Positions 6,703-20,275 of a stretch of DNA of 64,000 bases are shown piece by piece. Every line of letters starts with the position of its first letter. Position 1 is the stretch's first letter. Source of the DNA: Candidatus Altiarchaeota archaeon (GTDB taxonomy: Archaea > Altiarchaeota > Altiarchaeia > IMC4 > SCGC-AAA252-I15); the NCBI GenBank assembly GCA_043800255.1, contig JAZDNF010000001.1, positions 64,001 to 128,000 of the forward strand, written 5' to 3'. A program made the position numbers and the translations under genes. The notes under the pieces were generated by a model. The model saw only the letters and a list, made by a program, of their open reading frames with translations, was not told the DNA's origin and did not search any database.

Positions 6703-7145
6703 GCCTTTTCCCTAGTCTGAGAATAGCCCCGTATTATCTCCTCAACGTCAGGCACTTCCTCTTTTGTCGGTTCGACTGTGATGGTCATGCCCTTGAAGTT
6801 CGGCGACCCTGTCTGCAGCGTTTCCGCCTCCACGATTGAGTTGATCCAGGGGCCTTTGGGGACGAATACAATGCCTCTGGGAGTCTCGCCAGCCTTAGCG
6901 TACAATGTAATGCTGGACACCCCTGAGGTGAGCTTTACCCTGCCGTCGTCTTGGACGTTCAAGGTTGCCATGTCCTCAGGATTCATGTAGCACGTTCCAG
7001 CAGCCGTCCTGTAGTCGTCCTTGTGCGTCATCTTCCTGCCGCTGCGCATTATCACACCCTGCTTGGAATCTGAGCCGGTGTCCAATATGACCTTCAGCTT
7101 CACCCTGAGGTAATCTCTCACGCTTTTGAAACCTTCCGGTATCAT
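6699..7145 (-). CDS. fwdD: Formylmethanofuran dehydrogenase subunit D (start may be GTG near 7103)
   Basis: ILDTGSDSKQG, CYMNPEDM, GIVFVPKGPWIN, GSPNFKG. Confidence 0.88.
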   Translation of the reverse strand: MIPEGFKSVRDYLRVKLKVILDTGSDSKQGVIMRSGRKMTHKDDYRTAAGTCYMNPEDMATLNVQDDGRVKLTSGVSSITLYAKAGETPRGIVFVPKGPWINSIVEAETLQTGSPNFKGMTITVEPTKEEVPDVEEIIRGYSQTREKA

Positions 7146-8443
7146 CCTCTCACCTTCCTAATCTCCTGGTAGATTTTTGAGAGCGTCTCCTCGTCTGAGG
7201 ACGTGAACTCGAACGGAGACTTCAGGAACTTTCTGGCTGTCAACGGCACGTTGTCCATCCTATAGTATGTGGCGTCAGATTCGAAGCCGCTTATAACTCC
7301 CGGTATGACCAGATCTGCCATATACGTTGTCGGCGTCGGAGCCACGTCTATCGATATCAGCGGTATCTTTGCCATGTGCTCCACGCACTTCCGGGGGAAG
7401 TGGGCGACAGGGTCTGCTGATATGCTTAGCATGGCGTCGATCTCCCCCTCTCTCAAGAGGTCGATTATGGAAGTCTCCCCAGGGTTATAGCGCGGGTAGC
7501 CTCTGAAGAAGTCAACAGCAAACGGGTAGCCTGTCCTCCATGTCAGGACTTCGTTGAATCCTGCGACATTATAATGGCCTCTCATCGGTATCACAGAGAA
7601 CCTGGTGTGGTCGTTCAAAGTCTTCACAAGTTCGAGCAGATTTTCGATGTTATAGGCTTTCATGCCTGAGTGGGTGAGGCCGAGGCCTATGAATGCGACG
7701 CCATACTGGCATTTTTTCAGCATTTCAGCGAGCTTTTCAACGTCTCTCAGCTTGAGGCCAGCGACCTCGCTTACGTTCAGCGTCTCTCCATTGATGATCG
7801 CCCTTAGGGCTGAGATGAGCTCGAAATCGCTGTTAGGTTCTATCTGGTAGAAGAAGTTCGCCAGCTTTGCTGTAGTGCTCTTCCTCGTGTCTATCACTAT
7901 GATCTTCCTGTCCCTCCTGCCCTGCTCCCTGTACATTCCCCTCGGGTATGTTCCAAAGCGTGACATGTGCCTCGGGTGGGACTCCATCGGGTTTGAGCCC
8001 CAGTACACTATCAAGTCAGAGTAGTTCATCACCATACCCAGGGTGCAGGTCGGAAGCCCGCTCATCTGCTCCCCCAGTATCGTCGGCCCGTGGCAGTGGG
8101 ATGACTGGCTGTCGATGTAGCCTCTTATGTGCTCTGCGATGTCGACTCCGACTTTTATGGCCTCGCACGAGTTCTCGCTCCACCCATACAGGAGGGGGCG
8201 CTCGGCTTCGGTGAGCATCCTGGCAGCCTCCTTTACTGCCTCCTTCCAGCCGATCTCCTCTGCCTTTCCGTTGACTTTGAGTGTCGGCTTCATGATGCGT
8301 TCCATTCTGCCGATTTCCTCGAATTTAGACTTGCCGACAAGGCAGGCGCCGTTGACTTTGACGATTCTGCCGTCTTCCAACTCTACGATGATGTCGTCGC
8401 ATCCGCATCCGCATACCGGGCATGTTATGTCCTTATATATCAT
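7142..8443 (-). CDS. fwdB: Formylmethanofuran dehydrogenase subunit B (Mo/W, Cys ligand)
   Basis: Start reassigned to MIYKDITCPVCGCGCDD (ATGA overlap with fwdC); CHGP, WGSNPMESHPRH, PMRGHYNVAG, YRMDNVP. Confidence 0.93.
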   Translation of the reverse strand: MIYKDITCPVCGCGCDDIIVELEDGRIVKVNGACLVGKSKFEEIGRMERIMKPTLKVNGKAEEIGWKEAVKEAARMLTEAERPLLYGWSENSCEAIKVGVDIAEHIRGYIDSQSSHCHGPTILGEQMSGLPTCTLGMVMNYSDLIVYWGSNPMESHPRHMSRFGTYPRGMYREQGRRDRKIIVIDTRKSTTAKLANFFYQIEPNSDFELISALRAIINGETLNVSEVAGLKLRDVEKLAEMLKKCQYGVAFIGLGLTHSGMKAYNIENLLELVKTLNDHTRFSVIPMRGHYNVAGFNEVLTWRTGYPFAVDFFRGYPRYNPGETSIIDLLREGEIDAMLSISADPVAHFPRKCVEHMAKIPLISIDVAPTPTTYMADLVIPGVISGFESDATYYRMDNVPLTARKFLKSPFEFTSSDEETLSKIYQEIRKVRG

Positions 8444-9186
8444 CTTCTGATCCTGACCTCCCCCTTCCCTTTGAAGCTTACGTCGCCATCGTATAAGATG
8501 TACTGCCCGTCTTCGCCCTTCCTTTTGAGGTAGAATGGAGCGTCCATTGGCGTTTCTACTGTAATCGATCCCTTCTTCATAGCATATCCCAGCGGGCTTC
8601 CGCACTCTCTGGCTTTGATGGTTCCCCCACTCATGTAACTTCCTGTGAATTTCTCGACTCTGCCCTCTACTGTTATCTCCCCCCCTATAAGTCCTTTCCC
8701 GACGTCCAATCCGACGTTGCCTCCCACTTTGATGGTTCCGCCGCTCATTCCCGAGTCCTCTCCTCTAACAGCGCAGCCGACATAGCATTCCACGCTCCCC
8801 TTAACTTCTATGGTGCCTCCTCTCATGCCAGTCCCAACCCAGCCTCCAGCGTCCTCTTCGACTATTATGCTGCCGCCTACCATGCCCTCGCCGAGGTGCA
8901 GGCCTGCGCCGCCTTTGACCAGTATCTCGCCTGCCTTCATATCCTCCCCGATTCTTTTAACCTTTGAGAAGTCTCCCTCCAGCAGGAGCTTCTGGTCTTC
9001 AGGCTTTTTGGCAATCTCACCCTCGATTTGGAAGACCTCGCCCAACGTTTTCTTCCTGTTGCCTGCGTAGACTTCAAGCTCCAGTATCTGCTTCATGGTC
9101 TTGCCTGCGAAGGACTCAGGCTTCAAAGCCTCCGCCTCGATCGGATAGTCCAATTTTTCCTTCAGCTTAATTGTTAACGTCTTCAT
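8440..9186 (-). CDS. fwdC: Formylmethanofuran dehydrogenase subunit C
   Basis: GxGMxGGxIxVxG beta-helix repeats; GDFSKVKRIG. Confidence 0.92.
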   Translation of the reverse strand: MKTLTIKLKEKLDYPIEAEALKPESFAGKTMKQILELEVYAGNRKKTLGEVFQIEGEIAKKPEDQKLLLEGDFSKVKRIGEDMKAGEILVKGGAGLHLGEGMVGGSIIVEEDAGGWVGTGMRGGTIEVKGSVECYVGCAVRGEDSGMSGGTIKVGGNVGLDVGKGLIGGEITVEGRVEKFTGSYMSGGTIKARECGSPLGYAMKKGSITVETPMDAPFYLKRKGEDGQYILYDGDVSFKGKGEVRIRR

Positions 9187-10765
9187 CTCTCACCCTATAA
9201 TTTGAAAGCCCAACGCTGTAGTATCTCCTGAAGAAGGTGCTGAGTTCATCGTCCAGTTCTTTGTTGTCAACTTTCCTGTCAGTGTGCTTTGTAACGCCCT
9301 TGAACGATTTTGCCACAACGCCGTCCTTGACGACAAGTTCGCCCTTTATCACTGAGTAATCTGCCTTGGTGAAGCCCTCCTCTATCCCGTTGCTTAAGTC
9401 ATAGACCGCGAAGCCGGCTTCCGCTCCCTCCCTTATCCCGTCATACTTGAGCCCCAGTATCCTGGCCGGGGTGCTCCTAGTGACTTTGGCTATCTCATAG
9501 AGCGTGTACTCCCTGTCCAGGCTCAGGAGCGTTGTCTTCTTCTCAAAGGCGGGGTTCAGGGTTTTCGCGTACTCTTCCCTCCCTTTCCTGCTCATCAGCC
9601 ACTCGATTATCCTGGGATACCTTATGTAGGGCCCAGCGTTTGGGTGGTCTGTTGACAGGCAGACCCTGTCAAGGTCCTCGGCCAACAGCATCAGCTCCAG
9701 TCCAACAGCCCATTGGGTGGAGTTGACTGGGTTCTTGCTGGAGTAGTGTATTGGGACTATGCCTGCGCCGTGCTCCAGCTCGACGTCGCCTGAAGTCCAC
9801 TTCTCGTGTATCAGCTTCGAAAGGTATTGTTCGAAGGGGCTGTCAGCGGTGAGCGTCGTAGTGTAGTCCAGTGTTATCTGGCCGACGTCGAACGTTATCC
9901 TCTTGTCCTTATTGACGTGCTTCATTATCTCATCAGTCTTGGAGCAGAATTCCTTCCACGAGTCTCCGCCGTAGCTGTTGAACTGCAGGTGGGTCACGTG
10001 CATTCTCTTCTCTGTCAGGCTCATCTCCTCGAGCGCTGACATATAATTCCCATAATAGCCCATCCCGTTCAAGTGTATGTGTATCGGGTGGGGGAGCTCT
10101 AGCTCGTTGTTCGCCCTCTCCAGGTTTCTTATTATGTCCGATGGTGTGATGTCAAGTTTCGGTATCATTGAGTCAGGTTTAGTCTTCTTCTGGTTCCAAA
10201 CCCATGAGAGGAACGCTCCAGGAGCTACGAGCTTTATCCCGTACGTTTTCGTCCTGTCAAGCATCCATGCGACATAATCGGTTAACTTCTCCGTCTCACC
10301 CCTCCTTATGAAATCAGCCACCAGGTAGTTGTTGCCAAGCATCAGGAGCCCGACCTTGTCCATGAGCGGTATGTCGTTCACCTCGTGATGGTAGTGTTTC
10401 ACCTTGAGGGGCGAGACGTCCGGGACGCAGAGTGTGCTATAACCCATAAGCGCGTACTGGTATCCTGTGAGGAACGTTGAGGGGCATGAGAACCCGGAAC
10501 CTGAACGGAGGCTCCCTCTGGACTCCAAGACAACGCTCTTGTCTTCAGGCCGCATCATCCTCGCGGCGTTCACAGCCGAGCCTGCTACGTGGGTGTGAAT
10601 GTCAACGCCTGAAGGCATGAGCACCTTGCCCTTCGCGTCTATGACCTCAGGCTTCCCCTTCGCCTTTCCAACGATCCTGCCATTCTCGACGAGGACGCTC
10701 ATCACCTCCCCGTCTATCTTGTTGACTGGGTCGTAGACTTTTGCGTTTCTGAACTCTAAGGCCAT
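9167..10765 (-). CDS. fwdA: Formylmethanofuran dehydrogenase subunit A
   Basis: Start MALEFRNAKVYDP; DIHTHVAG, PIHIHLN, HVTHLQF, QWAVGLEL, STDHPNAGP. Confidence 0.93.
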   Translation of the reverse strand: MALEFRNAKVYDPVNKIDGEVMSVLVENGRIVGKAKGKPEVIDAKGKVLMPSGVDIHTHVAGSAVNAARMMRPEDKSVVLESRGSLRSGSGFSCPSTFLTGYQYALMGYSTLCVPDVSPLKVKHYHHEVNDIPLMDKVGLLMLGNNYLVADFIRRGETEKLTDYVAWMLDRTKTYGIKLVAPGAFLSWVWNQKKTKPDSMIPKLDITPSDIIRNLERANNELELPHPIHIHLNGMGYYGNYMSALEEMSLTEKRMHVTHLQFNSYGGDSWKEFCSKTDEIMKHVNKDKRITFDVGQITLDYTTTLTADSPFEQYLSKLIHEKWTSGDVELEHGAGIVPIHYSSKNPVNSTQWAVGLELMLLAEDLDRVCLSTDHPNAGPYIRYPRIIEWLMSRKGREEYAKTLNPAFEKKTTLLSLDREYTLYEIAKVTRSTPARILGLKYDGIREGAEAGFAVYDLSNGIEEGFTKADYSVIKGELVVKDGVVAKSFKGVTKHTDRKVDNKELDDELSTFFRRYYSVGLSNYRVRDEDVNN

Positions 10766-10766
10766 C

Positions 10767-11219
10767 TTATGCGAAATCCAGTGCATCATAGGGGCAGGAG
10801 TCAGCGCATATCCTGCACTTCTTGTCATCGCCGAAGCGCCTGCACTTTTTCAGGTTCACTATCCTGACTTTGCCCTTGGCGACCCTCAACACGACGTCCT
10901 CGCTCTCAGGGTCTTTGCCTCCTCCGGCGCTCGGGTCATGCATCGCTGACACGGGGCACGCTATCACGCAGTTCCCGCAGCCAGTGCACCTGTCCTCGTT
11001 TATTATTATGCCAGTCTCCTCAGACTTAGCCCTGCCTGAGAGCATGGTCTCAAGCTCTTTCTTATGCTTTGAGAAGCTCTCTTGGAGTATCGGAGTGCAT
11101 TCGACAATCTTCGCATCTCCCTTGAGCAGCTTTGACGCGAATCCCATGCACGTGTCTACTCCGCATTTCCCGCAGTTCAGGCCGGGCAGCTTTTTGTAGA
11201 CTTCCATCAGGTTTACCAT
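10767..11219 (-). CDS. Fe-S protein: N-terminal RnfB/CdhE-type Fe-S domain plus FwdG-like ferredoxin
   Basis: LPGLNCGKCGVDTC..FA..ECTP, then CTGCGNCVIACP and C..CRICADSCP. Confidence 0.8.
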   Translation of the reverse strand: MVNLMEVYKKLPGLNCGKCGVDTCMGFASKLLKGDAKIVECTPILQESFSKHKKELETMLSGRAKSEETGIIINEDRCTGCGNCVIACPVSAMHDPSAGGGKDPESEDVVLRVAKGKVRIVNLKKCRRFGDDKKCRICADSCPYDALDFA

Positions 11220-11223
11220 CCTC

Positions 11224-12588
11224 TTACCTCCATTTCTCCTTCACGAACTTCCCTATCTCGGACGAGTCTCTCGGGCCTATGAGGACTTCCCATCCTGTCT
11301 CATCTTCTATTGTTCCTCTGATCTGCGAGGCGAACATCGGCAGTATAAGCTTCCTGTGCTTTACCTTATCTGCAAGCTTGCTGTTTTCGATGGCCTCCCT
11401 TATCTTCGACCCTGACAGGTCTCCTGTCGCGATTGCAGTGTCGACCGCAAAACCTTTGGTTCCTACAACCAGAAGGTAGCTGTCTATGCTGCTCTTCTGC
11501 AGGTCTCCAGCCACTGTGAAATACGTCAGGGAGAAGTTGGTTGTCACAAAGACAGGCGAATTCTCGCCCGGCTTTCCTATCTCATACAGCTTAGCATCCA
11601 CCTCAGGTTCCGTCCTCGGGTCAGTGTATATGTTCTGCCTCAGCGTCAGCATGTGAATCAGCGACCACGGCTCTATGGAGTGGACCACTATCAGGGATGC
11701 GAACCTTGACAGCAGAGCGCATGCCAGGACAGTCTCATAGTATGCTGCCATTATTCTGTCCTTTGTGCCGGTCCAGGCTATTGCAGGCACTCCCATAAGA
11801 GGATAGCCGAGTTCCCTGACGTTCTTTACAGCCGACTTCCTGAGCATCGTGAAACCTTCAATGGTGTTCTTGAGGCCTGAGCCTACAGGCATCGTCCCAG
11901 GGTCTAAGACTACGTTATCGTGGCCCAGATTGGAAGCTATGCTGCCGAGCATGTCGAAATCGTTGGAATAGACTGCCATGGGCGCGTTGTACCTCTCTGA
12001 GAGGGCGTTAACCTTCTCCCAGTTTTTCTCGTTGGCTGCGTAAATCAGAGGCCGCCTGCCATCGAGCTTTTTGAGGCCTGCCTCCAGCGCTTTCGGGTCG
12101 AAGGAGCACAATACCATCGGACCGTTAAAGCTCTTAGCGACTCTCTCGACCGTTTTAGCGTATTTTTCAGGATTTTTGGATGCGCATCTCACTGCTATGG
12201 CATCCAGTCTAAGTTTCTCCCCAATCCTCTCCAGCACGAAGTTCTTGACAAAGTTGATTCTGCCGTCTATCTCGGCGTCGGGCATGGTATCGCTGACGTC
12301 GACCGCTATCCTGCAGGGGTTGAAGAACTTCAGCTCGTGCCTGTACATGACCTCCTCGCCCCCCAATGTCATCCCCTCAGGATGGCCGAATCTGACCTCC
12401 TTGACAGGGGGAGTGACCATGTCCATCAGCTTCCCGAGGTTCTCCTTGACTATGTACGGGCACTCGCCCAGCTTCCGCCCCCTGTCTATGAGCTTTATGG
12501 CGAAGCTCATGCACGTGTTCTCCCCGCAGTCCTTGCAGTTCGTCTTCGGCAGGAGCTTGTAGAGCTCCATTGCGGTTGTTCTGGGCAT
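11224..12588 (-). CDS. cdhE: CODH/ACS complex gamma subunit (corrinoid Fe-S protein large subunit)
   Basis: LPKTNCKDCGENTCMSFA..CP, GGEEVMYRHE, LRQNIYTDP, VTTNFSLTYF, GPRDSS. Confidence 0.95.
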   Translation of the reverse strand: MPRTTAMELYKLLPKTNCKDCGENTCMSFAIKLIDRGRKLGECPYIVKENLGKLMDMVTPPVKEVRFGHPEGMTLGGEEVMYRHELKFFNPCRIAVDVSDTMPDAEIDGRINFVKNFVLERIGEKLRLDAIAVRCASKNPEKYAKTVERVAKSFNGPMVLCSFDPKALEAGLKKLDGRRPLIYAANEKNWEKVNALSERYNAPMAVYSNDFDMLGSIASNLGHDNVVLDPGTMPVGSGLKNTIEGFTMLRKSAVKNVRELGYPLMGVPAIAWTGTKDRIMAAYYETVLACALLSRFASLIVVHSIEPWSLIHMLTLRQNIYTDPRTEPEVDAKLYEIGKPGENSPVFVTTNFSLTYFTVAGDLQKSSIDSYLLVVGTKGFAVDTAIATGDLSGSKIREAIENSKLADKVKHRKLILPMFASQIRGTIEDETGWEVLIGPRDSSEIGKFVKEKWR

Positions 12589-13742
12589 TATCCCATCACC
12601 ACCCAATCCTCGTAATCTAGTTCAGGCTTTTTCTTCTCGTCCCAGAAGAGGTTTATGACCTCCTTCACGGATGCTATCGCAGCAGGGTGGAGCATCATGT
12701 ACAAATCAGTCCCAGAGAAGAGCGCAATGATCCCTGTTATCGTCTCCCAGAGGGGGCCTCTCAGCTCCTTGGGGCCCAATGCTGGGTCTTTTATCCACGC
12801 CTCTCTGGCGCTCCACGCGTTCGAGACTCCTGCCATTATCGGCATGGCGAGGTCCTTGTCGCCTTTCAGGGCAGACAGCCTTATCCTCTCCATCGTGCTG
12901 ATTGAGTACTCTATCCCATAGCCGAGGGAGGCCATGTTCGGGTCCATTATTATCCTGTCTGCAGGAAGGCCTCCCTTCATGATTTTCTTGTTCATCTGTT
13001 TCATCCCTGGGACGTCCATCGAAACCAGTGACAGTATCAGATGGTTGTGCTCTACCGCTGCCTTTACTACTGTCTCGTATCCCATGCCTGGCGAGACTGA
13101 GGATATGAGTACCCTCTCCCCTGACGCCGCCTCGGCGGCCTTTGTCAGGACTTCAGCGTCCTTCTCATAGTTTCCTGAGCCTGATATTATTATCGGGACT
13201 TTCACAGCCTGTAGGACGTCTTCAACGGTTTTAACCGCATCCTTCGCAGGCCTGTTCCACAGGTTCGGGTCTGTGCTCACCAAATGAAGCGTGACCATGT
13301 CTGCGCCGAAGTCTTTGACCTGTTTTTTCGCCCACTCCGCCGGATCTTTCATCGCATCGCCAAAATTCTCCTTGACGAATCCTGGCAGCCTGAAGGGCAC
13401 GTCGAAGACGTCGTGGCTTATTATCGGCTTGTTGGGCATCTTCCCCTCGAAGAAGTAAAGTGGTGGTGCGGTCTCCCCGCCTATCCTGAGCGTCTTACCC
13501 CTTGTGCCTCCTTCAGAGCTTGTTGCTCCCAGCGTGACCTCATGTACCCTGTTAGCGTACGATTCTGCAGGAATCTGGAACCTGAACTTCCTCTCAACCT
13601 GTTTAGCCTTCTCGACTGCCTTCCTCACGCTCTGCATTATGGCGTGCGGCATCAGCCCAAGCTCTATCTCCTCCGCCTCGAGGTTGAAGTCCTCTATCTC
13701 AAGCTCCTCAATGCCTTTCAGTATGTCCTCTATGTCTATCAT
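12588..13742 (-). CDS. cdhD: CODH/ACS complex delta subunit (corrinoid Fe-S protein small subunit)
   Basis: EGGTR..IGGE, DPAEWAK, LHLVSTDP, GSGN.EKD, LGYGIEYS, NAWSAREAW, RGPLWE, MLHP. Confidence 0.95.
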   Translation of the reverse strand: MIDIEDILKGIEELEIEDFNLEAEEIELGLMPHAIMQSVRKAVEKAKQVERKFRFQIPAESYANRVHEVTLGATSSEGGTRGKTLRIGGETAPPLYFFEGKMPNKPIISHDVFDVPFRLPGFVKENFGDAMKDPAEWAKKQVKDFGADMVTLHLVSTDPNLWNRPAKDAVKTVEDVLQAVKVPIIISGSGNYEKDAEVLTKAAEAASGERVLISSVSPGMGYETVVKAAVEHNHLILSLVSMDVPGMKQMNKKIMKGGLPADRIIMDPNMASLGYGIEYSISTMERIRLSALKGDKDLAMPIMAGVSNAWSAREAWIKDPALGPKELRGPLWETITGIIALFSGTDLYMMLHPAAIASVKEVINLFWDEKKKPELDYEDWVVMG

Positions 13743-14485
13743 GTCAGCCCCCCTGCAAAGGATGAGACGCTATTGTAAGCTTCCGAGTCTGCCGGCAGAT
13801 TTATCAGAGGCTTTCCTTCGAGGTCGTATTCTGCCACAAGCGTGTCCTCAGGTATCAGCCCTATGACGTCTATGCCAACTTCCTTCGCCTCCTTGAGCAT
13901 GAGTTCCCTGTTCCCGCTCTTCACCCTGTTCAGCACAAGGAACATGCTGTCGAACTCTATCCCCAGCTCTTTGGCAAGATCTTTTATCCTTCTAGCGGTG
14001 AGGAAACCCTTCTTTGACGGGTCTGTCACTATCAGCATGGTGTTGACGTTCTGCGTCGTCCTTCTGGACATGTGCTCCAGGCCTGCTTCGGCGTCTATGA
14101 TGCAGTAGTCGTAAGCCTGCGTGGTCTCGTCTATTATGTTCCTCAGCAGGTGGTTTATGGCGCAGTAGCATCCCGGCCCTTCAGGCCTGCCCATGACGAT
14201 GAGGTCGAATCCGTCCTCCTCCACTGTTATCTCGAAGACCTTGGAGGACAGGTGTTTCTCCTTCTCAACTCCCGGGGGGAGTTTCTCGCTGAGGAGGTCT
14301 TCCCTTATGTCGCCTACTGTCTTCTCGAATTTCACGTTCAAGGATTCGGCCAGGTTGGAGTCTGGGTCTGCGTCTATGGCAAGCAGACTTCCTTTGCCGC
14401 TCTCCTTTATCGCTCTCACCAATAAAGCGGAGAGCAGCGTCTTCCCGACCCCTCCCTTGCCTGATACTGCTATTATCTTTACCAT
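13739..14485 (-). CDS. cooC: CooC/AcsF-type Ni-insertion ATPase
   Basis: GKGGVGKT, IDADPDSNL, GRPEGPGCYC, DAEAGLEHMSRRT. Confidence 0.92.
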   Translation of the reverse strand: MVKIIAVSGKGGVGKTLLSALLVRAIKESGKGSLLAIDADPDSNLAESLNVKFEKTVGDIREDLLSEKLPPGVEKEKHLSSKVFEITVEEDGFDLIVMGRPEGPGCYCAINHLLRNIIDETTQAYDYCIIDAEAGLEHMSRRTTQNVNTMLIVTDPSKKGFLTARRIKDLAKELGIEFDSMFLVLNRVKSGNRELMLKEAKEVGIDVIGLIPEDTLVAEYDLEGKPLINLPADSEAYNSVSSFAGGLT

Positions 14486-15873
14486 TATCTTTTCTTGTCG
14501 ACTTTTTTGATTATCACCTTTTCAGCGTGTATTTTGGCGTTCTTCAGTATTATCCTGAAGCCGCCTGCAGCCGGAAGCGCCAGCGTGGGGGCTGATATCA
14601 CCTCCTGGCCCTGGGGGAAGTCCAAGGTCTCACCAGCCTTCTCCTTTGGAGCCTCCTCTATGTCCTCCTTTTGTCTGCTCATCAGGGGGTGTTTTTTCTC
14701 CTTCAGGAAGGTTTTCAGCTCCTCCATGCCTTTGACTTCGTTCTCTGTCGGTATCTTCTCGAACAACTCCTTTGGGATCGCATCAGCCATCCTCTCCTTC
14801 ACGTTGGACGGCATCCAGGCTATCCTGTTCCATCCGCCGTCTGCTGAGAGGAACTTGTCAGAGTGCATCCACTGCAGGCCGAAGCCGAGGAAGCCTTCGG
14901 TCTGGATCCCTCCTCCGGACTGGCTTGCCATGGTCGAAAACTTCAGGCCGTTGACGGTCTCCCCCTTGAAGTTCCTGTCCAGCACTCCTATGCCATCCAC
15001 CTCTGGAATGTAGAATGCTATCGCCTCGAAGCATCCGCATGATGTGTGGGGCTTGTCGAACATGCTGTACATCTGGAACCTCTCGTTGGCTCCGTTCGAC
15101 CCCTCTTTCACGGCATCGTTCACGCCGGAGTATTCTCCCTTCTCCTCATCGATTGTTTCCCCTTTCACTACCTTATAGATGGGCCCGTCTGGTTCGACCC
15201 TTGCCGCCGCGCTGGCGTCTATCCAGCTTATGGCGCCGCAGAGTGACGTCCTCTGGGGGCTTATCATGCATATGTGATTGGGTGCGAAGGACTGGCATAG
15301 CGTGCATGCGTAGAAGTCTTCCACGTCCTTGTCCTTCATGCCTCTTACTCTCACGTCTCTGCTCTCGTAGACTTTTAGGGCTTTATTGTAGAATTCTTCC
15401 ACTTTTTTCTCGTCCGTTATGAACGTTATCTGCATCTTCTGGATGAATGGCAGCTCCTTCTTGAACAGGTCCATCAAGGCCCCTCCTATGTGCTTGAAGG
15501 TGAGGCCTTTCTTCTTCGCCTCCTTGCTCACCCTGATCCAGATGTCATACCTCTGGTTCAGGTGCATCACGCCTTGAATGTAATTCATGAAATCGTGGTT
15601 CCTCCTCTCTATCACAGGCTCTAAGTCGCTGTCAATCTCCTTGCCGTAGACTTCAAGGTATATCCCAAGCGGCTGTTTGCTGCCTTCTTCGAAGTCGCCT
15701 ATGTCCTTCCCGACGACCTCGACTTTTCCGTCCTCAATCTCCTTTTCAGGCTTAACCTGGGTGAGTTCCGCCTTGTACTTCACTTTCGGGCCTCCGAACT
15801 CGACCTGCGTGTCAGGCCCCCTGATACGCTCCCCCTCGTATATTATCCCAACGTCCACTGGAATCTTAATCAT
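14485..15873 (-). CDS. cdhC: Acetyl-CoA synthase (CODH/ACS beta subunit)
   Basis: YEGERIR, MHLNQRYDIW, CTLCQSFAPNH, SLCGA, PHTSCGCFE (A-cluster ligands), DGGWNRIAWMP. Confidence 0.96.
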   Translation of the reverse strand: MIKIPVDVGIIYEGERIRGPDTQVEFGGPKVKYKAELTQVKPEKEIEDGKVEVVGKDIGDFEEGSKQPLGIYLEVYGKEIDSDLEPVIERRNHDFMNYIQGVMHLNQRYDIWIRVSKEAKKKGLTFKHIGGALMDLFKKELPFIQKMQITFITDEKKVEEFYNKALKVYESRDVRVRGMKDKDVEDFYACTLCQSFAPNHICMISPQRTSLCGAISWIDASAAARVEPDGPIYKVVKGETIDEEKGEYSGVNDAVKEGSNGANERFQMYSMFDKPHTSCGCFEAIAFYIPEVDGIGVLDRNFKGETVNGLKFSTMASQSGGGIQTEGFLGFGLQWMHSDKFLSADGGWNRIAWMPSNVKERMADAIPKELFEKIPTENEVKGMEELKTFLKEKKHPLMSRQKEDIEEAPKEKAGETLDFPQGQEVISAPTLALPAAGGFRIILKNAKIHAEKVIIKKVDKKR

Positions 15874-18416
15874 CCTTTCGCACCTCCTGAGAGTCTTTCT
15901 AATAGTGTCGGGTCTGGTATCCTTTCGACCGGCGTCCAGCCCTGCTTTTTCAATACCTTTAGTATCTTGTCTTTGATTGTGGTCGGTATGTCCTTCTCGG
16001 TCCTAACGAGCCTGTGCAGGTCGTCCGGGACCCTGTTGTAATACTTCTCATGGAGGTTTATGTAGTGGGCAAGCTTTATCTGCCTGCCTTTGACGCCGTC
16101 CGACGCCCTCATGCACAGTTTCGGGATCAGCGTCATGACCTCCTCCTTAGTCTCTGCAACGTATGAGAGATGCTCCGGAACAGGCCCCACGTCGTATTTG
16201 CCGGGGCCTCTCGTATCGAAGACTGTCCAGTCTGTTTTGTCGTCGCTTCTCAGTTCCTTCCTGTATTTTTTGCCGGATGGCCCCCATATCACCGGGATGC
16301 CCAGTCTCATGACGCCGGCGCCTATGGAAACGGCTTTGGGCGACATGGTGCCCCAGACGAGGCCCACCGCCCCGATCCTGTTGTGGACGTAGTCTGCTAT
16401 CTCCTCGAAGTTGCCTCTAATCTTTCTCCTGCCGAAGAGCGAGGCAACCTTTATCGCGGCCCCTGTTATGTGGGAGTTGCTGACGCATGACCCAACGTTG
16501 ACCAGGTTGCCGGCTTCGAACTTGCCGCCGTATTTCTCATACAGGTTGTTTGTCCCGCTGTAGTCTGTCGCGAGCGCCATCGCAGAGCAGCCTGAGGTTG
16601 CCACTATGAAGTTTCTTTTCAGGAATTCTTCCATCATCTCGCCAAGCTCTCTGCCGCCGTTCGGCCAGAGCGAGCATCCTACAGGGGCTATGATGCCCGG
16701 TATTTCGCCGAACACCAGGGGGGCGCCGACTTCCCTTATCTCTATGTCCTGTATCGGCCCCCTTCCCGGGTTGATTTTTGCCTTGTCATTCATGAACTTG
16801 CTCTTGTATATGTCGGAGAATATCGAGACTATCGGTATCCTCTGCGGGCAGTATGATTCGCATCTCCCGCAGAAGACGCACTTGTGCAGGTAAGCCATCA
16901 GCTCCTCCTCGCTGAGCGGTTTCTCGCTTTTTCTGTCTGAGCCCCTCTTCTTTATGTCTTCGATAGCGTCTTTTGAGAGTGAATAGTACATCTCCTTCCC
17001 GCTTTTTGTTTTTCCCAGCCCTTTTATCTCGTCCAGCATCCTGTAGATGTACTGTCTTGACACTCCAAGTTTGTCTGAGAGTTCTGTCGGGGTGTAGGCG
17101 TTCTCCTTCAGGAGCACGTTCATCGCAGCCTTCAATGTGCTGCCTCCTTCCTCGGTGGTGACGTCCACATCGTGCAGTTTGAGGCATCTCATCCGTATGC
17201 TCCTTATCATCCCTCTGACGTCGTTGCCGACGGGGCATGCTTGGACGCATAGGCCGCATGCGGTGCACTTCTGGCTTTCCTCTGCGTAGTCGATTTTCAC
17301 TGCCTTTTTGCTCTTGTGAATCCTGATGGCGGTCTTTGCCGCGATTTCCCCGGCCTTCTCAAGGTCTGGGATGTAGGCGCCTTTTATCTGCCTGCTTGCC
17401 AGTTTCTCAACCACTGTGTCAGGGTTCTCCTTAGAAAGGTCTGGCAGGCCTCCGACATTGTTGTCTGATGCTGTTATAACCGGTATTCCAAGTTTTGAGG
17501 CGTTCTCTATGGTGTCCACTCTCACGCACTGTTCGTCTGTCACTATGACGTCCGCTATCCCGGACCTGACGTACGGCAGCTGGTATGAAAGCTGCCCTAT
17601 CACCTTTGTTTTCCTGTTGTATCTCGCCAGGTCCAGTGCAGTGCAGCATATTCCTGCGACTTCCACGTCAATGTTGTTCTCCGTAACGTAGTCTATGATC
17701 TCGACTCCTGTCACCACGTTGTGGCCTATGCAGAGTATTACCGGCTTCTTGTTGTCTGCGGTGCTGAATCCTATCTCTGCGTGCTCTACCTCCTGCTCCC
17801 CCCTGGGCAGGTTCAACGCGACAATCTGGGTTATGTCCGCTATTTCCATGCCAAGGTGGTCTAACATCCCGGCGTGCAGCGTTTTTGAGCTGAAGTCGAG
17901 TTCGCTTGATTCCTGTCCCATGTGCAGGGACGACGTCAGCTGAGTGAGCTGTTCTTCTACATAGCTTAATGGCTTCTCCAGGTCTCCCAGAGTCTTCGGC
18001 CTTATGCCGTATACGAGTTGCGTCCACGGTGCCTGCATCTCAGAGCCTGCCGCCGGGTCAAGTTTCAGGTCTCTGCCGTATTTTTTTGTCAGGCTGTCTA
18101 GGCCGTGTCTGGCGTGTGCCGTGTGCGCCGCCGCGCCGATTACTGCCAGCAGGAGGTTTTCCCTTGCCATCTGCGTGTTCAGGTTGATTCCGCACGCTCC
18201 TCGCCTGTTGGCGTTGAGGTCGCATGGTCCGTAGGCACAGAGGAAGCATTGCTTGAGGTAGGTGTGGTACTTTGGCTTATACCTCCTGAGGAGTTTCTCG
18301 TCCCATCCTCTGAGGTCTGTGACCTTTGGTTTCATGTTGGGGCCAATTGGCTCCCAGTCATCATCTTCCAAAACTTCCCCTATTGTTATCCTTACGTTTT
18401 CTCCGTCAATCTTCAT
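15870..18416 (-). CDS. cdhA: CO dehydrogenase (CODH/ACS alpha subunit) with internal wHTH-like insertion
   Basis: WEPIGP, CxxCxxGPCDL..GACG, AHTAHARH, C-cluster IGHN/GICCT/DEQC/VGCS/SGCSA/GSCVSN, two CxxCxxCxxxCP separated by 117 aa, C-terminal PDPT. Confidence 0.95.
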   Translation of the reverse strand: MKIDGENVRITIGEVLEDDDWEPIGPNMKPKVTDLRGWDEKLLRRYKPKYHTYLKQCFLCAYGPCDLNANRRGACGINLNTQMARENLLLAVIGAAAHTAHARHGLDSLTKKYGRDLKLDPAAGSEMQAPWTQLVYGIRPKTLGDLEKPLSYVEEQLTQLTSSLHMGQESSELDFSSKTLHAGMLDHLGMEIADITQIVALNLPRGEQEVEHAEIGFSTADNKKPVILCIGHNVVTGVEIIDYVTENNIDVEVAGICCTALDLARYNRKTKVIGQLSYQLPYVRSGIADVIVTDEQCVRVDTIENASKLGIPVITASDNNVGGLPDLSKENPDTVVEKLASRQIKGAYIPDLEKAGEIAAKTAIRIHKSKKAVKIDYAEESQKCTACGLCVQACPVGNDVRGMIRSIRMRCLKLHDVDVTTEEGGSTLKAAMNVLLKENAYTPTELSDKLGVSRQYIYRMLDEIKGLGKTKSGKEMYYSLSKDAIEDIKKRGSDRKSEKPLSEEELMAYLHKCVFCGRCESYCPQRIPIVSIFSDIYKSKFMNDKAKINPGRGPIQDIEIREVGAPLVFGEIPGIIAPVGCSLWPNGGRELGEMMEEFLKRNFIVATSGCSAMALATDYSGTNNLYEKYGGKFEAGNLVNVGSCVSNSHITGAAIKVASLFGRRKIRGNFEEIADYVHNRIGAVGLVWGTMSPKAVSIGAGVMRLGIPVIWGPSGKKYRKELRSDDKTDWTVFDTRGPGKYDVGPVPEHLSYVAETKEEVMTLIPKLCMRASDGVKGRQIKLAHYINLHEKYYNRVPDDLHRLVRTEKDIPTTIKDKILKVLKKQGWTPVERIPDPTLLERLSGGAKG

Positions 18417-18591
18417 CTTTCTCAACTTCTGTCGTGTGGTTCATGAAGTCTATCTTCTTTATCCTGCAGTTTTCCAGCTCTGTTTTTTTACCGAGAATGT
18501 CTGAGATTATCAGTTTCCTGTCAGATATTGTTATCCTGGCAGCTTCTTTTACTATCTCTTCCCCGTCTAATACCACCTTTGATTCGCACAT
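18406..18591 (-). CDS. cooT: CooT-family nickel-binding protein
   Basis: 61 aa, MCES N-terminus (Cys2), DILG, IKKIDFMNH; first gene of the cdh operon. Confidence 0.8.
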   Translation of the reverse strand: MCESKVVLDGEEIVKEAARITISDRKLIISDILGKKTELENCRIKKIDFMNHTTEVEKDED

Positions 18592-18593
18592 CC

Positions 18594-18710
18594 TAGTTTA
18601 CATATATCGGCATCATCATTTAAAAATGAAAATTATTGGTTTACACGTCTTTAAAAAGCGCAATATCTAGCTCTATTATCATAAATGGCATGAACCACTG
18701 GTTTACATAT
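18594..18710. promoter_or_regulatory. Three T(A/G)GTTTACA(T/C) repeats upstream of the cooT-cdh-fwd operon; candidate operators
   Basis: TAGTTTACATAT 18594-18605, TGGTTTACACGT 18637-18648, TGGTTTACATAT 18699-18710. Confidence 0.55.
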
Positions 18711-18760: not shown

Positions 18761-20275
18761 TTATCCGAGAGAGTAGAGGTTGCCCTCTTTTTTGATGTTG
18801 ATACCCAGCTGTTGCCTCTCATAGGATGACAGGGTGTTGTAGACCTTCCCCAAAGAAACTTTGTTGGAGAGTATCGCGCTCATGATTTCACCCTTTGCCT
18901 TTCTACTGAACGCATTATCTGAGATGTCACCTTCAACTTTGACGCCAAGGATTGTGAGCCTCTCAACGAGCGGCTCTTCCAGGGCCTTTTCATCAGTCTC
19001 AGTCTGCTCTGGCATGGAAACGGGAGGTCTCACATCGTCCTGCGCTATCCTGAACTCAGCGTCCATCCTATCTGGCGTCTTTCCCGGCCTCCCCCTGGTT
19101 CTACTCTTTTCAGCAGGCCTTCCCTCTAAAGTTTTTGGAGCGTCTACCGGCGCTGGAATCTTATTAGCAGGAATCGGTTCCGGAGGAGTGCCCTCTTTCC
19201 TCTCATTTTGGACTCTAACCATGAGCTGTTCGAAGACCTTCGACAGGTCCTCCCTGCCGTAGCCTGCGAATAGGCTGATGCACTGCTGGAAAAAATTCTC
19301 CCCCTTCGCTGGTTCCGCCTGGTTTCCGAAGCGTTCGAACATGTGGGCTGCGCTATCATAGTGTTTCTTCTGATTGTAAGCGTGTCCCGCCCCTATAAAA
19401 TCCAGAGCCTTAACCTTCTTGAGTATGCTCTCTTTCGTGGTGACGACGTCGTCCTTGAGGTTCAACCTAGTCAGGATCACATTCTCCCCGTAGCCTCTTG
19501 CGAACGAGTCCAGCATCATGTTGTTGAGGTACGCCCAGGTGTCATAGTTGTTGACGAACTTCTTCTGCGCCATATTATCCAACATCACAGTAATGGCGTC
19601 CCTTGCGACCCTGTTCATCTCCTCAGGCTTTCCGAGGTGCACCTCCAAGTCCGTCCCCATTACCGTTCCATCCTTCCTCTGGAGTATGTGATCAACGGCA
19701 TAGTCTTTCCCCTTGCCTATGTCACCTACCACAGCGCCCTTGTCCTTGAAGGCTTTCAGGAACCTGCCTACTGCCTCCATCTGTTCTTCAACCTTCTTGT
19801 AGCTCATCGACTCTACAGCACCGTAGATTGAATCCTCAACTTTTTCTCCCCTCTCCTCTACCAAGTAAGTCCGGCGTGTTTTCCCGCTTGAGATCACAGC
19901 AGCAACAGGGATTGCAACAGGCAACCCAGTGTGGAGTAAAATAAGGTTGTTGTTTGCCTCCTCTTCAGGCGGAACGTGGGGGCCGGTTTTGAGGTGGGAC
20001 GTCTTGTAGACGAAGTCGTCCGAGTATTTCACAGGATCCCTCCTCCCAGACGGCTGGAACTCTCCAATCATTTTAACATGATCTTCCAGGCCCTGAGTTA
20101 ACATCATAAGAGGGAGGCCTGATTTAGCGTCAAATTTCAACTCATAGTCTCCACTGACGGACTGCTTGAACGTCTCAACCAGCGCGCTCCTCCTCTCAAC
20201 CACACTAAGGTCTCTTATCCCAAAGAGGTCAGGCGCGTTCCCGCCTCCTGCGGCACCCTGCCTGCTTTTTATCAT
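18761..20275 (-). CDS. Orphan protein with N-terminal protein-kinase-like (Kdo/WaaP-like) fold
   Basis: FVYK, EEEANN, GLPVAIPVA, YLVEE, GAVVGDI..DHIL, GTDLE in PKL order; Pro-rich linker; possible C-terminal wHTH. Confidence 0.55.
   Translation of the reverse strand: MIKSRQGAAGGGNAPDLFGIRDLSVVERRSALVETFKQSVSGDYELKFDAKSGLPLMMLTQGLEDHVKMIGEFQPSGRRDPVKYSDDFVYKTSHLKTGPHVPPEEEANNNLILLHTGLPVAIPVAAVISSGKTRRTYLVEERGEKVEDSIYGAVESMSYKKVEEQMEAVGRFLKAFKDKGAVVGDIGKGKDYAVDHILQRKDGTVMGTDLEVHLGKPEEMNRVARDAITVMLDNMAQKKFVNNYDTWAYLNNMMLDSFARGYGENVILTRLNLKDDVVTTKESILKKVKALDFIGAGHAYNQKKHYDSAAHMFERFGNQAEPAKGENFFQQCISLFAGYGREDLSKVFEQLMVRVQNERKEGTPPEPIPANKIPAPVDAPKTLEGRPAEKSRTRGRPGKTPDRMDAEFRIAQDDVRPPVSMPEQTETDEKALEEPLVERLTILGVKVEGDISDNAFSRKAKGEIMSAILSNKVSLGKVYNTLSSYERQQLGINIKKEGNLYSLG

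Follow-up and report, generated by a model that had tools for sequence, protein, structure and literature searches.

A CdhA with an insert between its cluster-binding motifs

The window analysed here is a 64,000-nt stretch of a Candidatus Altiarchaeota genome (GenBank assembly GCA_043800255.1, contig JAZDNF010000001.1, positions 64,001 to 128,000). It carries a cdhA gene, encoding the alpha subunit of acetyl-CoA decarbonylase/synthase (ACDS), a carbon monoxide dehydrogenase (CODH), and the subject of this study is a domain, very probably a winged helix-turn-helix (wHTH), inserted in this protein between the two ferredoxin-type motifs of its E/F-cluster domain. CODH/acetyl-CoA synthase (ACS) is among the oldest and most studied metalloenzymes, and the Altiarchaeota are an uncultured, globally abundant subsurface group, represented here by a groundwater archaeon. 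The gene and the parts of its insert are as follows.

15870..18416, minus strand: cdhA, ACDS/CODH alpha subunit, 848 amino acids (aa) from the ATG at 18416
17232..17267, minus strand: first ferredoxin-type motif CTACGLCVQACP, residues 387-398
16881..17231, minus strand: inter-motif insert of 117 residues, residues 399-515, from translation and alignment to solved CdhAs
17148..17231, minus strand: N-side linker, residues 399-426, its first part homologous to the first arm of the short hairpin
16929..17147, minus strand: winged-HTH domain, residues 427-499, from ESM Atlas, a Protein Data Bank (PDB) profile search and Pfam
17025..17063, minus strand: putative recognition helix VSRQYIYRMLDEI, residues 455-467, aligned to the recognition-helix region of AdcR/ZitR
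16977..17012, minus strand: putative beta-wing KTKSGKEMYYSL, residues 472-483, basic, placed by its conserved residues
16881..16928, minus strand: C-side linker, residues 500-515, homologous to the second hairpin arm
16845..16880, minus strand: second ferredoxin-type motif CVFCGRCESYCP, residues 516-527

The open frame runs through the insert without interruption (15870..18425, minus strand, 851 codons counted from a TTG at 18425), and 16881-17231 translates stop-free into exactly 117 residues between the two motifs, as a first-pass annotation of this DNA had stated. Residue numbers start at that TTG. The true start is probably the ATG at 18416, because the 97%-identical protein P0003 begins MKIDGEN and the ESM Atlas sequence begins at residue 4. 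It is the single cdhA of its genome.

Outside the insert the protein is an ordinary CdhA. It scored 917.3 bits against the TIGR00314 model (cut-off 781.3), with the match split in two stretches, and its closest solved relative was the Ca. Ethanoperedens CODH (8riu_A, E 6e-210). Residues 10-402 and 507-831 aligned to 17-417 and 431-759 of 8riu_A, and the alignment to 9c0q_A split likewise. The alignment thus delimits the insert: about 104 residues occupy the place of 13 in 8riu and of about 9-13 in solved CdhAs generally. Both CxxCxxCxxxCP motifs of the E and F clusters are complete. In an alignment of 82 CdhAs, C387, C393 and C397 were invariant and C390 was at least 90% conserved. The window protein also has H235, C260/C261, C300, C584, C60, C63, C68 and C78, all invariant across these sequences, and C613 and C647, conserved in at least 90%. 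These columns include the residues that we take to be the His/Cys ligands of the C cluster and the cysteines of the B and D clusters. The enzyme around the insert is therefore complete by its family score and cluster residues and looks catalytically intact, in agreement with the earlier claim that all C-cluster ligand motifs are retained.

The long spacer is a minority form. Among 121 CdhA-like proteins classed by the region between the two motifs, 70 had a short and 29 a long spacer; 17 more, missed by the regular expression, had motifs 38 residues apart (26 residues between them), and five had one motif only. The canonical spacing of about 25-30 aa given by the first-pass annotation fits this distribution, in which the short form prevails. 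All 29 long spacers belonged to wHTH or extra Fe-S cassette types. A collection of 80 loci gathered with an Altarchaeum CdhA gave the same picture: 59 could be classed, 44 as short and 15 as long, and all 15 carried known insert types.

The insert contains a winged helix-turn-helix domain

Three lines of analysis identified the fold. When the insert was compared with Pfam alone, HTH_11 matched at 26.4 bits (cut-off 25); within the whole protein the same match fell to 21.7 bits, under the cut-off. HTH_17, TrmB, PF0610-like_N and other families matched the insert more weakly. Across 15 homologous inserts, TrmB and HTH_11 each matched 12 (E<=0.01). A profile built from the 15 inserts retrieved the structures of AdcR (E 2.7e-7) and ZitR (E 1.6e-6), and also those of CzrA, SmtB, PH1932 and AspA, in alignments covering helix 1 through the recognition helix to the wing. 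Finally, the ESM Atlas model of the window protein (predicted template-modelling score 0.83, mean predicted local confidence 0.79) was compared by fold over residues 403-510. All ten listed neighbours were ArsR/SmtB-type clusters, with template-modelling (TM) scores of 0.55-0.64 over 70-87 residues, mostly 427-499; predicted models stood on both sides of this comparison.

The insert thus almost certainly contains a real wHTH domain of the ArsR/MarR/TrmB type at about residues 427-499, as the first-pass annotation had proposed, and this assignment is about as firm as one can be short of a solved structure. The flanking linkers, homologous in all spacer types, match the two arms that form the short hairpin in other CdhAs. 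The wHTH has accordingly been added at the tip of this hairpin, which connects the two cluster-binding motifs of the Fe-S (E/F-cluster) domain.

The domain is genuine and conserved where it is kept

Seven further protein clusters carry the same insert, with identities of 69-100%, and so do five other genomes of the family to which the window belongs and one genome of a sister family. A survey of 61 Altiarchaeota species genomes found cdhA in 21 and the wHTH insert in 10, all 10 within open frames of 580-1084 codons. The gene itself is patchy across the phylum: only 6/21 genomes of the window's own family have cdhA, and most close relatives are without the enzyme. A 3752-nt contig of another run reaches across the insert and its surroundings (1101 nt) and differs there by 55 substitutions, with no insertion or deletion, and a second contig bridges the junction at 16881. 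The four runs in which the stretch was found, none listed as RNA, all come from one study, which is possibly the window's own source. No evidence in favour of an assembly chimera or of frameshifted junk between two cdhA halves was found. With an open frame, nine other species genomes and 23 protein clusters from several sources carrying the insert, and contigs spanning and bridging it, such an artefact has next to no credibility.

The substitution patterns indicate purifying selection on the wHTH where it is kept, with conservation like that of the catalytic body. Within 16881-17231, all seven differences listed for a strain-variant contig fell on third codon positions (by hand arithmetic), and P0003, the protein matching that contig, was identical to the window protein over residues 400-510. 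Among seven CdhAs with the wHTH as their only module (21 pairs), the wHTH core had a mean pairwise identity of 0.76, between the values of the two catalytic halves (0.71 and 0.79), and the N-side linker reached 86%. The nonsynonymous rate (dN) of the insert was lower than that of the rest of CdhA in 7/10 pairs, equal in one and higher in two. Since the synonymous rate was saturated in most pairs, the dN/dS ratio could be read from L003-L005 as the sole usable pair; it was 0.13 for the insert, 0.088 for the core and 0.104 for the rest.

The unchanging residues include, besides core positions, some in the putative DNA-facing elements. Q458 and G476 were invariant in all 15 inserts, across which whole-CdhA identity drops to about 50%, and S456, R457 and K477 were nearly so. 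In the wHTH-only CdhAs, S456, R457, Q458, Y459 and Y461 of the recognition helix (S-R-Q-Y-x-Y) and K472, K474, G476, K477 and Y481 of the wing (K-x-K-x-G-K) were all invariant, which bears out the expected conservation of the recognition helix. The isoelectric point of the wHTH core is 9.3. No Cys or His occurred among the invariant or near-invariant columns of the insert, either in the 15 inserts or in the wHTH-only set.

A modular cassette with a history of repeated loss

The insertion point holds different contents within the same archaeal order: the short hairpin only, the wHTH alone, or an extra 2x[4Fe-4S] ferredoxin (Fdx) domain. The wHTH-only proteins are 838-851 aa long and the extra-ferredoxin type 856-898 aa. 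Two additional CxxCxxCxxxC motifs were seen at this point in L008, L011, L012, L014, L015, L033-L036, L040, L041 and L044, giving four successive cluster motifs. In Altarchaeum-type CdhAs the wHTH precedes the ferredoxin domain (for example P0041, P0046 and L030-L032), and some of these proteins contain a further domain of about 90 aa before the wHTH, which brings them to 1052-1084 aa; this domain (P0044) had no Pfam match and no ESM Atlas model or match. In P0047/L039 only a remnant of the cassette modules is left. Tandem cdhA-like genes were observed on Altarchaeum contigs (L031 4001-7159; L032 1256-3985 and 4001-7249; L039 2963-4891 and 5250-7736), the longer copy of a pair having the domain of about 90 aa ahead of the wHTH.

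The wHTH and Fdx inserts have unrelated cores (hhalign probability 57.6%, driven by the flanks). Besides the window, 23 protein clusters carry the wHTH, 10 of them alone and 13 together with the Fdx domain. All 20 matches of the insert profile to longer proteins were CdhA-type (19 with PF03063, one a fragment), and this wHTH subfamily was found only in CdhA-type proteins, as far as sequence matches tell. The cassette has the order [~90-aa domain]-[wHTH]-[extra 2x4Fe-4S], occurs in several combinations and was found only in Altiarchaeota CdhA. This modularity, like the repeated loss described below, goes beyond what the first-pass annotation saw.

A tree of the CdhA body was calculated with the spacer removed, from 55 rows chosen from the collected proteins plus two loci, under a quick LG+G4 model. 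The presence of the wHTH required at least six state changes on this tree, and the approximately unbiased (AU) test rejected a single clade of all 23 wHTH-bearing rows (p 1.2e-5; the group was named after the first tree had been seen). Short and remnant forms were nested among the insert-bearing CdhAs. Read most simply, the insert would be old and its modules would have been lost repeatedly, and exchange between cdhA genes may also have taken part.

Searches for relatives outside this set yielded little. The insert alone, compared with 1.84 billion representative proteins, gave seven matches, which were multi-HTH repeat proteins or unrelated repeats with no CdhA among them, and which say nothing on its origin. 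No wHTH paralogue was found in the organism's own genome, where the best candidate was an ArsR-like stretch at C8:276205 (31% identity, E 0.003). A metagenome locus search with the insert returned four loci, namely two repeats of known lineages and two weak non-CdhA HTHs.

This history bears on the possibility that the wHTH is a structural passenger, picked up a single time at a loop that tolerates insertions, possibly out of a mobile-element or regulator gene, and serving mainly to stabilise or space the Fe-S domain with no ligand of its own. The frequent state changes, the rejected single clade, the nested short and remnant forms and the very different contents that the loop accepts would all suit such a passenger, as would weak matches of the inserts to resolvase/transposase-type HTH families (HTH_7, HTH_23, HTH_28 and IS630). 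Purifying selection as strong as on the catalytic body speaks against it. So do polar and basic residues, putatively exposed, that stay invariant across orders and that a mere spacer would not need. A passenger is consequently an improbable explanation.

Operon context and the electron-entry side of the enzyme

The cdhA gene is the second of an operon that is ordered cooT-like, cdhA, cdhC, MinD/CooC-like ATPase, cdhD, cdhE, RnfB-like, fwdA, fwdC and fwdB.

18406..18591, minus strand: cooT-like gene, 61 aa, begins MCES, first of the operon (PF10133, E 8.8e-11, 42.4 bits against a cut-off of 27)
14485-15873, minus strand: cdhC
13739-14485, minus strand: MinD/CooC-like ATPase gene
12588-13742, minus strand: cdhD
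11224-12606, minus strand: cdhE (gamma)
10767-11219, minus strand: RnfB-like Fe-S protein (PF04060 and two Fer4 motifs)

The stop of the cooT-like gene overlaps the cdhA ATG, and relatives of both types, wHTH and Fdx, have CooT-like homologues upstream of cdhA. After the RnfB-like gene, fwdA, fwdC and fwdB follow on the same strand as the cdh genes (window 7142-11219, minus strand, RnfB-like gene included). As the fwd genes adjoin the cdh genes, the carbonyl branch is clustered with the step that opens the methyl branch. On the upstream side of the cdh promoter and close to it, a 504-aa open reading frame (window 18761-20275, minus strand) has a C-terminus that looks wHTH-like by eye. It matched no Pfam or NCBIfam family and was not conserved at this position in the g9 genomes; with no Pfam model matching, the likeness is unsupported and was set aside.

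The epsilon subunit gene cdhB (TIGR00315) was found in none of 41 Altiarchaeota genomes, which include the window's own (93% complete) and of which 14 have cdhA; a control matched 3/14, and absence is not proven. Altiarchaeota ACDS complexes thus seem to be without epsilon. According to PMC11474084, the E/F-cluster domain is itself an insert between two Rossmann folds that holds the surface-exposed F cluster, the electron entry point, and epsilon buries the D cluster. PMC11493965 describes an extra subunit of the Ca. Ethanoperedens CODH, with a ferredoxin domain and an F420 reductase, that docks in trans. Together with the modules that Altiarchaeota insert in cis, this subunit marks the same side of CODH as a place for added modules.

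The wHTH could accordingly be a protein-docking adaptor at the electron entry port with no DNA binding at all. Its partner might be encoded in the operon (the RnfB-like protein), lie in the same chain (the extra ferredoxin domain), or be one of the ferredoxin-like carriers or a different ACDS subunit of an epsilon-less complex. Its position between the motifs of the domain with the exposed F cluster favours such an adaptor, and so do the docked Ca. Ethanoperedens subunit, the extra 2x[4Fe-4S] domain that relatives hold at this very point, alone or right after the wHTH, and an operon that encodes an Fe-S protein. Where cdhB is not found, subunit contacts must moreover differ. On the other side, the conserved polar helix start and lysine-rich wing follow the usual pattern of DNA contact rather than that of a hydrophobic protein interface, wHTH-only forms keep the domain although they have no extra ferredoxin domain, and CdhAs of the short type in this order do without either module and also without epsilon. 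Docking is a serious but tentative possibility.

Candidate operator boxes at the cooT-cdh promoter

The promoter region upstream of the cooT-like gene contains the following elements.

18594..18605, minus strand: operator-like box ATATGTAAACTA, ends 2 nt before the cooT ATG
18618..18626, minus strand: TATA-like element TTTTTAAAT between the proximal boxes, read by eye, in a layout shared with relatives
18637..18648, minus strand: operator-like box ACGTGTAAACCA, just upstream of the TATA-like element
18699..18710, minus strand: distal third box ATATGTAAACCA, from a motif search

The two proximal AYRTGTMAACYA boxes flank the TATA-like element of the cooT-cdh promoter. The consensus RTGTAAACYA occurs three times in the window, always within 115 nt upstream of cooT, against 0.15 expected, and none of 100 shuffles reached three copies. 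Operator-like boxes were seen upstream of cooT in the window and in L003, L004, L005, L007 and L009. A layout of box, 10-12 nt, TATA, about 14 nt, box, 3-20 nt and ATG, with the boxes 42-43 bp apart, was present in all six distinct wHTH-only genomes with upstream DNA, which span four genera and two families, although the sequence around the boxes is fully diverged among them; in L007 the second box reads TGTGAAC. The layout was absent from all three distinct cooT promoters of Fdx-type operons and from all 29 further upstream rows, a set with many repeats of the same genomes.

Beyond the cdh promoter, the 12-nt form of the box has six copies in the organism's own genome (3.3 expected), all in three intergenic places: the cdh promoter, a palindrome between trpC and a 282-aa gene to which no family was assigned, and a position 16 nt before an isopropylmalate/citramalate-synthase-like gene. 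At the second place, the perfect palindrome TGTAAACTAGTTGACA (L110 1501-1516; G000:C7:50101-50116) was observed to consist of two box half-sites and to lie beside a TATA-like element; it was present in 1/41 genomes. The palindrome TGTMAACNNGTTKACA was present in 1/41 genomes, the own genome only, and is uninformative for the relatives. At the third place, a box within 160 nt upstream of the synthase-like gene occurred only in G000. It was absent from the cdhA-bearing G008, G015 and G019 and from 12 rows of cdhA-less genomes at >=54% identity (one row with 53 nt only), and single heptamers lay upstream of this gene in L130, L134, L141, L144 and L145. A regulon site at the synthase-like gene was therefore rejected: the site is not conserved, and this comparison cannot separate CdhA from another regulator. 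On sequence comparison, the cdh promoter is the only conserved box site.

A conserved GC-rich inverted repeat, GCTGCGAG...CTCGC, was also noticed about 60-100 nt upstream of the same synthase-like gene in many genomes of the family (L116 at about 1390-1450, and the same place in L117-L127), with no Rfam match and no tRNA. Rfam likewise had no match in the cooT-cdh promoter, upstream of the leuA-like gene or in the window, and no tRNAs were found.

What the domain may do

The reading we favour is that the wHTH would be a working binding module whose ligand is most likely nucleic acid, to which a rough probability of 0.4 can be attached. The ligand is inferred from the residues that are fixed, namely the recognition-helix start S-R-Q-Y and the basic wing K-x-K-x-G-K; such a face and wing form the pattern that would be expected of a DNA-contacting wHTH. 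The CODH would then be a DNA-associated trigger enzyme. In the wHTH-only lineages, its candidate target would be the pair of AYRTGTMAACYA boxes that brackets the TATA of its own cooT-cdh promoter, and since one box lies upstream of the TATA and the other over the likely transcription start, binding there would amount to autoregulation. The conserved boxes fit a dedicated regulator of the operon, for which the enzyme's own wHTH is a candidate. Binding of the wHTH to these particular boxes would nonetheless be unlikely, and the chance allowed for it is part of the figure given for nucleic acid. A change of binding with the state of the flanking clusters is pure speculation. It is still harder to credit that CdhA is a sequence-specific trigger enzyme which binds both boxes in a way that depends on the redox or assembly state of the clusters next to its wHTH.

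Several observations weigh against nucleic-acid binding, and against the promoter as its target in particular. The boxes track the f1 and f4 lineages as much as they track the wHTH, and possibly reflect one evolutionary event; any other regulator could bind them. Altarchaeum cdhA encodes a near-identical recognition helix (CSRQYIYNVL), yet a box was found within 900 nt upstream in 0/3 loci with four gene copies, a result qualified by the position of Altarchaeum cdhA, which is not at the operon start. Direct-repeat boxes 42-43 bp apart fit the two-fold symmetric CdhA dimer poorly. For a module inserted in the surface electron-entry domain, protein docking is an equally fair reading, and the extra ferredoxin domain beside the wHTH in many relatives suggests docking of electron partners. 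Winged helices of large enzyme complexes often bind proteins, and CODH/ACS is usually very abundant, unlike a typical specific regulator. The losses or exchanges on the CdhA tree, at least six in number, also mark the wHTH as dispensable. Taken together, the comparative data neither establish nor exclude the trigger-enzyme idea of the first-pass annotation, in which a PutA/BirA-like enzyme would sense CO or redox state.

Novelty and meaning

The window protein is a new variant of a known enzyme. The first-pass annotation knew of no description of this architecture, and none of a wHTH or related insert in CdhA was found in the searchable full-text literature, a coverage that leaves out subscription-journal papers and supplementary files; the accessible parts of two Altiarchaeales papers (PMC4975002 and PMC4500143) make no mention of a CdhA insert.

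If the domain binds DNA, it would represent a new kind of trigger enzyme with redox clusters wired directly to a wHTH, and a first entry point to how the Altiarchaeota regulate carbon fixation; a central carbon-fixation enzyme would, on the trigger reading, report directly to its own promoter. If it docks a protein, it would mark a plug-in site for electron partners of epsilon-less complexes. Under either reading, the loop that joins the E and F motifs tolerates insertions in nature: at least three different modules occupy it, which makes it useful for CODH engineering. A bench test is cheap, and a positive outcome would be remarkable.

Comparison with known systems

To our knowledge, no DNA-binding-type domain has been known inside the Fe-S wire of CODH/ACS. 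Canonical archaeal CdhAs (8RIU, 9C0Q and 3CF4) resemble the window protein in full-length homology, in all cluster motifs and in an operon with cdhC, cdhD and cdhE. The canonical alpha2-epsilon2 CODH has an epsilon subunit, whereas cdhB was not found with TIGR00315 in the window genome or 40 relatives. Among Altiarchaeota, the Fdx-insert CdhAs (P0018, L008 and L014) share the insertion point and linkers with the window CdhA, but the latter has the wHTH only, and the insert cores are unrelated. Altarchaeum CdhA has the same wHTH together with the Fdx domain that is missing from the window protein.

AdcR (3TGN), ZitR (5YI0), CzrA and SmtB share with the insert profile similarity from helix 1 to the wing and with the insert a predicted fold. 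ArsR/SmtB and MarR regulators are, however, free-standing dimeric repressors of about 100-150 aa, whereas the window wHTH is internal to a 95-kDa enzyme and has both ends tied to Fe-S motifs. The metal sites of ArsR/SmtB proteins presumably consist of Cys/His at alpha3N or alpha5, and since the insert has no conserved Cys or His, it would have no ArsR-type metal site. Membership in an Fe-S wHTH regulator family was rejected as well, as Rrf2 matched only at E>=0.0024 in 5/15 inserts and SufR at E 0.039. In Rrf2/IscR and SufR the cluster is bound by C-terminal cysteines of the regulator itself, whereas the clusters in the window protein belong to the flanking ferredoxin fold.

Among trigger enzymes, PutA (ribbon-helix-helix), BirA (wHTH) and NadR carry their own DNA-binding domain, which is terminal, and their DNA binding is proven. 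The window CdhA may resemble them in that a single chain holds both an enzyme and a domain of DNA-binding type and that its own operon has a possible operator; unlike their terminal domains, its wHTH is an internal insertion in a ferredoxin fold. A further parallel is described in PMC11493965, where the Ca. Ethanoperedens CODH forms an alpha2-epsilon2-zeta2 complex and a 2x[4Fe-4S] accessory module sits at the electron side as a separate subunit with an F420 reductase. The Altiarchaeota, by comparison, have inserted such modules in cis, and one of them is a winged helix-turn-helix.

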